Source of the DNA: Nannocystis sp. SCPEA4
GTDB taxonomy: Bacteria > Myxococcota_A > Polyangia > Nannocystales > Nannocystaceae
Reading direction: 5' to 3'
Assembly: GCF_026626685.1 (NCBI RefSeq)
Contig: NZ_JAPNJX010000001.1
Span: forward strand, 1-12,751
Length of the DNA: 12,751 nucleotides
Shown: positions 3,028 to 3,735 of the stretch, in pieces
Layout: every line of letters starts with the position of its first letter
Numbering within the stretch: the stretch's first letter is position 1
Program-made: the position numbers and the translations under genes
The notes under the pieces: model-generated
Databases searched by the model: none
Told to the model about the DNA's origin: nothing
What the model saw: the letters and a program-made list of their open reading frames with translations, nothing else

Positions 3028-3735
3028 ATGCGCCGGTCGAGCCTACTCCTGTGCACGCTCGTCGCCTGCGCCGCCGCCATGGACGAACCAACCCAAGCCC
3101 GCAGCCGCATGGTCGAACAACAGCTGGCCGGCCGCGACATCACCGACGAACATGTCCTTTCGGCCATGCGGAGGGTCCCGCGCGAGCGGTTCGTCCCGCC
3201 CGAGGATCAGCGCTTCGCCTACGGCGATCACCCGCTACCGATCGGCCACGGCGCCACCATCAGCCAGCCGTACATCGTCGCGCTCATGACCCAGCTCGCG
3301 CGCGTGCAGCCCGGCGACCGCGTGCTCGACGTCGGCACCGGCTCCGGCTACCAGGCCGCCGTGCTGGCCGAGATGGGCGCCGAGGTCTACAGCATCGAGG
3401 TCGTGACCGAACTGGCCGAGCAGGCCGCCACATTGCTGGAGGAGCTCGACTACGACAACGTCCACGTGCGCGCCGGCGACGGCTACCGCGGCTGGCCGGA
3501 GGCCGCCCCGTTCGCCGCCATCATCGTCGCCGCCGCCGCGCCCACGATCCCGCGCCCGCTCACCGAGCAGCTCGCCGTCGGCGGCCGCCTCGTGATCCCC
3601 GTCGGCGAATTCGTCCAGGACCTACAGGTGCTCGAGAAGCGCCCGAGCGGCGACCTCCACCTCGAGACCGTCCTGCCGGTGCGCTTCGTGCCGATGGTCG
3701 GCGAAGTCGAGTCGCAGCCGCGCTCGCGCTACTGA
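3028..3735 (+). CDS. pcm: Protein-L-isoaspartate O-methyltransferase with a predicted N-terminal lipoprotein signal peptide (alternative start ATG 3079 gives the cytoplasmic-length enzyme)
   Basis: The translation aligns along its length with E. coli Pcm: VPRERFVP, LPIGHGATISQPYIVALMTQ, VLDVGTGSGYQAAVLA, APFAAIIVAAAAPTIP, RFVPMVGE. The first 17 codons encode MRRSSLLLCTLVACAAA, which has a positive n-region, a hydrophobic core and an LVAC lipobox. Stop is TGA 3733-3735. Confidence 0.88.
   Translation: MRRSSLLLCTLVACAAAMDEPTQARSRMVEQQLAGRDITDEHVLSAMRRVPRERFVPPEDQRFAYGDHPLPIGHGATISQPYIVALMTQLARVQPGDRVLDVGTGSGYQAAVLAEMGAEVYSIEVVTELAEQAATLLEELDYDNVHVRAGDGYRGWPEAAPFAAIIVAAAAPTIPRPLTEQLAVGGRLVIPVGEFVQDLQVLEKRPSGDLHLETVLPVRFVPMVGEVESQPRSRY

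Follow-up and report, generated by a model that had tools for sequence, protein, structure and literature searches.

Pcm of E. coli (PDB 3LBF) is a cytoplasmic protein-L-isoaspartate O-methyltransferase (PIMT) whose gene stands in a surE-pcm-nlpD-rpoS context (general knowledge and PMC2736372). The pcm gene considered here lies in a 12,751-nt stretch of DNA from Nannocystis sp. SCPEA4 (contig NZ_JAPNJX010000001.1, positions 1 to 12,751), referred to below as the window, and appears to encode a PIMT that is preceded by a lipoprotein signal peptide. The window protein has the same fold and presumably the same chemistry as the E. coli enzyme and other solved bacterial and archaeal PIMTs (4L7V, 2YXE, 1JG1), is 50% identical to E. 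coli Pcm over 193 residues, and contains the TISQP, GTGSGY, and GDG motifs. However, the E. coli chain aligns from its residue 9, which leaves no room there for a signal peptide. Unlike its E. coli counterpart, the window gene carries a predicted lipoprotein signal and belongs to a NadE-Pcm context, with no surE or nlpD at the loci. A cytoplasmic location is typical of characterised PIMTs rather than a defining property of the family, and window Pcm would depart from it by a conserved export signal.

The second class of described proteins to which the window protein can be compared is that of the lipoproteins processed by Lgt, LspA, and Lnt (PMC3222651), with which it shares an n-region, an h-region, a lipobox, and a Cys at +1. 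Unlike these known lipoproteins, its passenger is an S-adenosylmethionine (SAM)-dependent methyltransferase, and its signal lies at the short extreme (13 residues). We know of no SAM-dependent methyltransferase that works in the periplasm. Bhat et al. 2011 (PMC3222651), a study of the lipoproteins and membrane proteome of Myxococcus xanthus, names no PIMT in its main text, where the word "methyltransferase" occurs zero times.

PIMT folds have been described in noncanonical places or roles, as is proposed here, in Paracoccus complex I (CI-PIMT, PDB 8QBY chain t) and in R. palustris RPA2580. In both of these divergent paralogs, the Thr/Ser residues for substrate binding and the Asp-Gly residues for SAM binding are gone, a loss that marks inactive PIMTs, and both proteins are located on the cytoplasmic side (PMC11522691). 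In contrast, window Pcm and its lipobox-bearing relatives keep the Thr/Ser and Asp-Gly residues. Terminal extensions are known to change PIMT location in eukaryotes, as with the plant PIMT2 N-terminal isoforms that arise from alternative starts and human isoform II, which ends in -RDEL. The destinations of these isoforms are organelles or the nucleus, compartments that have SAM or import it; the isoforms are unrelated to bacterial lipoprotein export and provide a lead only. The full-text literature searched, whose coverage is incomplete, yielded no account of a bacterial PIMT that is exported or a lipoprotein, and databases label these proteins simply Pcm. What is new is the combination of a PIMT enzyme with a lipoprotein signal; automated signal-peptide annotations of such entries surely exist.

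The first 17 codons of the long gene model (3028-3078; ATG CGC CGG TCG AGC CTA CTC CTG TGC ACG CTC GTC GCC TGC GCC GCC GCC) translate to MRRSSLLLCTLVACAAA and continue in the same frame into ATG 3079 (Met18) and then the PCMT domain. A preliminary description of this DNA had held that the frame is open for 17 codons upstream of 3079, to ATG 3028, and that these codons encode a signal peptide with an L-V-A-C lipobox. The second statement is borne out, in that MRRSSLLLCTLVACAAA includes L11-V12-A13-C14. The first holds only in that 3028 is the first in-frame ATG; the frame lacks stop codons for 130 codons upstream of 3079, back to 2689, and the listed open reading frame (ORF) begins at GTG 2812. 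Under a rival reading, translation truly starts at ATG 3079 to yield an ordinary cytoplasmic Pcm, with the preceding 17 codons forming an untranslated leader that, in GC-rich DNA, is open and resembles a signal peptide by chance. GC-rich frames are often open at length, as this one is; solved Pcm structures show homology only from residues 25-28 onward; and some database entries begin at an internal Met, all of which would fit such a start.

To distinguish the two gene models, we compared orthologous loci from N. punicea (L081), N. exedens (L082), and six more distant relatives. The identity of the window protein is 99% to an N. radixulma protein (235 aa) and 91% to the N. punicea and N. exedens proteins. 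Relative to the latter two species, codons 1-17 exhibit six synonymous and two to three non-synonymous differences, corresponding to proportions of 0.40-0.42 (pS) and 0.05-0.08 (pN), respectively. Codons 18-60, which encode part of the enzyme, evolve in the same regime (pS 0.42-0.44, pN 0.06-0.09). Nucleotide identity to the same species is 82-84% over the first 51 nt of the ORF and 51-76% over the ungapped 51 nt upstream, and DNA further upstream of ATG 3028 lacks conservation. In N. exedens, an in-frame TAG three codons 5′ of the pcm ATG fixes the 5′ limit of the ORF at that point. On these substitution patterns, codons 1-17 are translated and under purifying selection at the protein level, which argues against a chance-open leader.

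The features that are conserved within the extension also point to the long form. A hydrophobic stretch ending in a small residue plus Cys occurs in 22 of the 26 closest protein clusters. In contrast, Met18 is replaced by G, V, or T in clusters P0012, P0017-19, and P0025, and at the DNA level L086 has ACG (Thr) and L089 has GGG (Gly) in its place. We also inspected the DNA upstream of the called start in three relatives whose database proteins begin at an internal Met. For one (L090, 567-617; database protein P0026), the gene caller skipped an upstream ATG, and the DNA encodes MRRMFLATLVFAAC with a lipobox. For another (L091, 2911-3000; database protein P0028), an upstream GTG was skipped, giving V(GTG)RRPLALLLLAPLAC; the N-terminus read from this GTG is VRRPLALLLLAPLAC, again with a lipobox. 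Because the upstream DNA encodes a signal in both cases, these short database proteins are gene-caller artefacts, and two of the entries that would favor a start at 3079 are thus miscalls. The third relative, a Myxococcales metagenome-assembled genome (L092), genuinely lacks the signal, and its N-terminus is the Met of the M-D-[DE]-P motif. The fact that gene callers sometimes pick an internal Met, which hides the signal, means that surveys of predicted proteins under-count exported Pcm.

The signal at the pcm start is not what chance would give. Among 480 ATG or GTG positions in the window that are followed by at least 40 open codons (six frames), a lipoprotein-type pattern occurs at five, or about 1%. 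Four of the five are the starts of pcm, of the gene at 3900 (+), and of the gene at 6524/6497 (-), which represent three lipoprotein-type genes. The fifth, MRVVLSCNLLVAC at 7549 (+), is in the frame of the ORF at 7420-12168, on the strand opposite to an arsR-like gene; it is taken to be a chance match and served as the background rate.

Sequences immediately upstream of ATG 3028 likewise are consistent with initiation at this codon. Of 10 orthologous loci, 8 have a TAnnnT hexamer preceded by GCGC at 6-7 nt 5′ of the start codon (TATGCT, TACGCT, TAGCCT, TATGCT, TATCCT, TACACT, TACAAT, and TAGGCT), and the other upstream DNA of these loci has diverged and cannot be aligned. No Shine-Dalgarno sequence was found before 3028 or 3079, whereas GGAG is present at nadE and at the AHSA1 gene. 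Leaderless sigma-A transcripts have been proposed in myxobacteria, where the criterion was a -10 element that places the transcription start at the start codon or within ~5 nt of it together with the absence of a Shine-Dalgarno sequence (PMC12754779). Both features, a -10-like position and no Shine-Dalgarno sequence, are found at pcm. The pcm mRNA is probably leaderless, beginning at the A of ATG 3028, as judged from this conserved arrangement.

The -10-like box stays beside the ATG regardless of what separates the gene from nadE. The nadE-pcm spacer (2689-3027) is 339 nt in the window, 461-495 nt in N. punicea and N. exedens, and only ~50 nt in the distant relatives L084 (5950-6000) and L088 (4126-4173), and the box is kept in all five despite these differences in length. 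The genus seems, from this comparison, to have gained a spacer insert carrying palindromes.

A start at ATG 3079 alone, which makes the same region a leader, is difficult to reconcile with an N. exedens stop codon just upstream of the ATG and a -10-like box at a fixed distance, which would leave no room for that leader. It also conflicts with the selection on codons 1-17, the conservation of the lipobox Cys rather than Met18, and the rarity of the lipoprotein pattern among candidate starts. This explanation is largely refuted by comparison of the loci, and we regard it as very improbable. The preliminary description had proposed a check of orthologs for loss of the extension and a conserved start at 3079; the outcome favors the long form, and we are confident that, on these sequence comparisons, pcm starts at ATG 3028.

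A related possibility, which overlaps with our preferred reading, is that the gene has two products: an exported lipoprotein from ATG 3028 and a cytoplasmic Pcm from ATG 3079. Both compartments would in that case be supplied by a single gene. The M-D-[DE]-P motif with Met18 is kept in most close orthologs, even where the length of the linker between the Cys and the Met differs (P0027, P0029, and L091), and the signal-less relative L092 begins exactly at the equivalent of Met18. Given these two facts, the motif has the look of an older N-terminus that the long form still carries internally. In several relatives, Met18 is also the start picked by gene callers. However, no Shine-Dalgarno sequence precedes 3079, and the replacement of Met18 by Thr in L086 and Gly in L089 means that an internal start is dispensable. 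Moreover, the 5′-terminal AUG is the favored site on a leaderless mRNA. Production of a second, cytoplasmic protein is therefore an unlikely addition to the exported form.

The predicted signal peptide has the expected organization for a lipoprotein precursor. The n-region is charged by R2 and R3, and residues 4-13 have zero charge and a mean Kyte-Doolittle hydropathy of 2.14. The lipobox consensus quoted for myxobacteria is L(-3)-[A/S/T](-2)-[G/A](-1)-C(+1) (PMC3222651). L11-V12-A13-C14 fits this consensus except for the Val at -2, which broader G+LPP and PROSITE-type patterns allow, and the lipoboxes of Nannocystis-type orthologs read LVAC, VVAC, LLAC, LVTC, LITC, LATC, and LAAC. In an AlphaFold2 (AF2) model, residues 1-20 lie outside the fold, with a mean predicted local distance difference test (pLDDT) score of ~61-62 and no secondary structure, and the first helix begins at residue 21. 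Alignments to solved Pcm structures begin at residues 25-28.

Export by the Tat pathway was considered and rejected. The window N-terminus (M-R-R-S-S-L-L) resembles the motif S/T-R-R-x-F-L-K in its twin arginine, which is not conserved (orthologs have MRSRG, MRGLG, and MPRLG), making Sec the likelier route. For M. xanthus, Lys at +2 is associated with inner-membrane retention (PMC3222651). The residue at +2 in window Pcm is Ala, not Lys, which by this rule weakly suggests the outer membrane. Export of Pcm as a lipoprotein is, on the sequence evidence assembled here, likely.

We then asked how widely such signals occur among relatives by classing N-termini with G+LPP-type and PROSITE-type lipobox patterns and with a reversed-sequence control. 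A hydrophobic N-terminal segment ahead of the domain is present in 94 of the 120 closest 90%-identity clusters, with 37 of the 94 matching the PROSITE-type lipobox rule. At the 50%-identity level, 94 of the 149 closest representatives have such a segment and 27 match the rule, which matches 5 of 242 reversed extensions. Lipobox-type N-termini were also found upstream of tblastn matches at at least 80 genome loci from other phyla; the groups among the matches listed include Planctomycetota, Acidobacteriota, Gemmatimonadota, Zixibacteria, Elusimicrobia, WOR-3, Bacteroidales, Chloroflexota, Leptospira, Bradymonadales, and Luteimonas.

Export signals in the family take the form of a lipobox, another signal peptide, or an N-in signal anchor. 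Some relatives have N-terminal anchors with positive charges on the N-terminal side, which also are predicted to place the domain outside. The fact that different signals lead to the same predicted location suggests that selection maintains the location rather than a particular sequence. The preliminary description considered a lipoprotein form of Pcm unusual. This does not hold among sequences, since most of the closest Pcm clusters, and members of many phyla, carry export signals; exported-type Pcm is unusual only relative to what has been studied.

This variety raises the question of whether the window protein itself is lipidated. More than half of the relatives with hydrophobic N-termini lack a recognisable lipobox and have plain or transmembrane-anchor-like signals, the window signal is unusually short, and the A-A-A that follows Cys14 (C-A-A-A-M) could be an AxA-type site for signal peptidase I. 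Thus, the extension might act as an uncleaved signal anchor or a type I signal peptide, such that Pcm is exported or membrane-anchored without being lipidated. Against this, no other feature of the extension is as well conserved in Nannocystis-type orthologs as the Cys with a small residue before it where the h-region ends, and a stretch of ten uncharged residues is too short to cross a membrane. We consider a nonlipidated form quite improbable for the window protein.

Several family members have odd architectures. P0121 (482 aa) has a lipobox and two tandem PCMT-domain matches, and in P0225 (399 aa) the domain is followed by ~170 further C-terminal residues. These are listed together with P0138, P0176, and P0195; several of the unusual proteins measure 560-940 aa and carry the PCMT domain at their C-terminal end.

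The enzyme that follows the signal apparently is, by its sequence, an ordinary, active PIMT. It scores 218 bits against PF01135 (cut-off 20.3), 238 bits against NCBIfam NF001453 (cut-off 188), and 220 bits against TIGR00080 (cut-off 159), placing it above equivalog cut-offs, and it matches 11 distinct PIMT sequences of known structure (best E = 7e-51). The AF2 model has a mean pLDDT of 91.9 (>90 in the domain) and a predicted template-modelling score (pTM) of 0.87. T77-I78-S79-Q80-P81, G103-T-G-S-G-Y108, E124, and G150-D151-G152 are all present, so that the SAM-binding elements, comprising the glycine-rich motif I, the acidic residue after strand 2 (E124), and the Asp-Gly of G-D-G, are in place. 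Among 36 lipobox-bearing homologs, S79, G103-Y108, E124, and G150-G152 are invariant and T77 is found in at least 90%. An inactive paralog of the complex I type was ruled out on the basis of these intact catalytic residues. The exported forms look like working SAM-dependent enzymes, as far as their conserved residues reveal, and not like decayed relics. By the sequence criteria tested, the window protein fits both the PIMT family and the lipoprotein precursor family.

Taking these results together, we consider it fairly probable that pcm is expressed as a leaderless gene from 3028 and that its product is an exported lipoprotein that methylates isoaspartyl residues in the envelope. In this scheme, the -10 box TATGCT would set the transcription start on the A of ATG 3028, and the leaderless mRNA would be translated from its 5′-terminal AUG. 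The product would be a pre-lipoprotein with a 13-residue signal peptide ending at the lipobox LVA-C14. After export, for which Sec is the likeliest route, Cys14 would receive diacylglycerol from Lgt, cleavage by signal peptidase II would take place just before this residue, and the new N-terminus would be N-acylated; these processing steps are those of the standard lipoprotein pathway. The mature enzyme of 222 residues would then be held by a tether of ~10 residues on a membrane surface facing the periplasm, where it would carry out SAM-dependent methylation of isoaspartyl residues in envelope proteins and thereby start their repair via succinimide.

Several observations weigh against this proposal. 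The Val at -2 falls outside the strictest lipobox, and the signal is short. The PROSITE lipoprotein rule calls for the Cys within residues 15-35, and the Cys of window Pcm is residue 14, one below this range, with values of 14-18 in orthologs. The invariance of Cys14 in alignment A2 arises because its 36 homologs were picked for a lipobox, and the unbiased figure is the 22 of 26 clusters given above. Met18 and MD[DE]P are well conserved within Nannocystis, so that a cytoplasmic product from 3079 is possible. A scan for consensus sigma-70 promoters found no full promoter because there is no good -35 element, and the -10 assignment consequently depends on conservation across species. In an all-against-all BLAST of neighboring ORFs from 86 loci, no conserved partner (SAM transporter, surE, or nlpD) was found beside exported-type pcm. 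Finally, SAM is made and used in the cytoplasm, and we know of no bacterial route by which it reaches the periplasm.

The supply of SAM outside the cytoplasm is the weak step of the mechanism. We therefore advance a role in envelope isoaspartate repair, suggested by the intact enzyme domain, only tentatively and hold it to be less secure than export itself, because there is no known periplasmic SAM and no linked transporter was found.

The coordinates of the features are collected in Table 1. The gene order upstream of pcm, with genes for an IucA/IucC-type synthetase, a Prs-like phosphoribosyltransferase, NadE, and Pcm, is conserved in Nannocystis-type relatives, and the NadE-Pcm adjacency is found in L081, L082, L084, L088, and L091. 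The IucA/IucC and Prs-like genes overlap by 4 nt, and a gap of 22 nt separates the Prs-like gene from nadE. Across the 86 exported-type pcm loci, no neighbor family is present in more than 7. Those that recur are generic by eye, such as a phosphoglucomutase/phosphomannomutase-like enzyme, an ABC ATPase, kinases, and TPR proteins.

Table 1. Positions of pcm, its parts, and surrounding features in the window.
Feature	Position	Strand	Details and basis
Prs-like gene, 3′ part	21-683		
nadE (glutamine-dependent NAD synthetase)	706..2688	+	conserved upstream neighbor; Pfam CN_hydrolase + NAD_synthase
Hairpin CGCAGGACGTGTCC/GGACATGTCCTGCG	2695..2726	+	after the nadE stop (2688), separates nadE from pcm; inverted repeat I7
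-10-like promoter hexamer TATGCT	3016..3021	+	at -12..-7 from the A of ATG 3028; would give a leaderless transcript
pcm coding sequence, complete, long model	3028..3735	+	235 aa plus stop
Predicted signal peptide, residues 1-13	3028..3066	+	n-region M-R-R, h-region SSLLLCTLVA; hydropathy, pS/pN
Lipobox L11-V12-A13-C14	3058..3069	+	Cys14 (3067-3069), predicted lipidation site and mature +1
Short tether, residues 15-25 (AAAMDEPTQAR)	3070..3102	+	between lipid anchor and fold; AF2, PDB alignments
Internal ATG (Met18)	3079..3081	+	start of the short model; possible second initiation site
PIMT catalytic domain, residues 26-226	3103..3705	+	Pfam PF01135 (PCMT), E = 1.4e-64
Lipoprotein A	3900..4877	+	signal MSRLLALSTLCLILPAC; EF-hand-like loops
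Lipoprotein B	5004..6524	-	signal ...FSAATLVAC; Thr-rich linker; Cys-rich C-terminal part containing DDDGNG
arsR-like gene	7215-7571	-	of the AHSA1/ArsR gene pair in the window
Large mechanical ORF	7420-12168	+	

Downstream of pcm, the genes vary among relatives. In N. punicea (L081), pcm is followed directly by AHSA1/ArsR, with no called gene between them (6703-6864). In N. exedens (L082), a single 299-aa lipoprotein gene on the + strand lies between pcm and AHSA1 (6859-7758); its signal is similar to one in the window (ALITFCTLVLPAC versus ALSTLCLILPAC) and its mature part is unrelated to the lipoproteins of the window. STAS or other genes are found downstream of pcm in more distant orthologs. 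The stretch between pcm and AHSA1/ArsR (window 3900-6524) is, on this comparison of loci, a variable lipoprotein islet.

The preliminary description had connected pcm to the adjacent Cys-rich lipoproteins by way of their DRDGNG and DDDGNG sequences. The two sequences do occur in the two neighboring lipoproteins, the DRDGNG-type sites sit in EF-hand-like loops, and such loops are prone to isoaspartate formation. However, nothing ties these specifically to pcm, and the proposed connection is not supported given that the position of the lipoprotein genes is not syntenic across orthologs. What survives of the lipoprotein interpretation is a conserved and selected lipoprotein-type signal that is not an accident of an open frame; the link to the neighbors and the claim of rarity do not.

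The two lipoproteins have some distinctive features of their own. The N-terminal half of lipoprotein A is rich in Cys, three loops of the protein are EF-hand-like DxDxDG sequences (DRDGNGSID, DSDRDGKLT, and DHDGDRRST), and its family matches are weak only (Pfam EF-hand, E = 0.004; XopAW calcium-binding effector, E = 0.009). The linker of lipoprotein B is a Thr/Asp/Gly-rich region of low complexity of ~150 residues (TTGDTTTGDTTTGD...), and no family match was found for its Cys-rich C-terminal part. The start region of the lipoprotein B gene (6497-6545) has GCTATAT 9 nt before ATG 6524 and no Shine-Dalgarno sequence, like pcm, and by analogy this gene may also be leaderless.

The spacer between nadE and pcm contains palindromic elements. 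The hairpin at 2695..2726 has 14-nt arms that are 93% complementary and a 4-nt loop, its motif is enriched in the window, and it is probably a terminator or a repetitive extragenic palindromic (REP)-like element. A scan for intrinsic terminators gave no match. The palindrome GGACATGTCC (at most one mismatch) occurs in six copies in the window versus 0.34 expected, at 669-678, 2699-2708, 2713-2722, 3148-3157, 3810-3819, and 4564-4573, mostly in or beside intergenic spacers, and could be a REP-like element or a regulator site. Longer palindromes (GACATGTCCCCCGGGACATCTC) recur in the poorly conserved nadE-pcm spacers of N. punicea (L081) and N. exedens (L082). The 339-nt spacer of the window yielded no Rfam match to a known RNA or riboswitch, and no tandem repeats were found in it.

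The distribution of these signals leads us to suggest, as a somewhat doubtful possibility that rests on predicted N-termini and conserved residues, that exported Pcm proteins constitute a widespread and overlooked class of SAM-dependent protein-repair enzymes whose place of action is the periplasm, the cell surface, or the outer side of the cytoplasmic membrane. Its members would include lipoproteins as well as forms with a signal peptide or a signal anchor, from diderm and monoderm phyla alike. Isoaspartate formation is among the commonest kinds of spontaneous protein damage, and envelope proteins are long-lived and beyond the reach of a cytoplasmic Pcm. If the proposal is true, a dedicated exported Pcm would be a new arm of envelope protein quality control, beside the periplasmic systems that repair disulfides, prolines, and methionine sulfoxides. 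Purifying selection on the SAM-binding residues of the exported forms would then imply that SAM or an equivalent methyl donor is supplied outside by an undescribed route. The periplasm is generally considered devoid of SAM, yet an enzyme that depends on it is preserved intact after an export signal in many phyla. This leaves two options, namely that SAM does get to the envelope or that the exported enzymes have a function other than catalytic repair.

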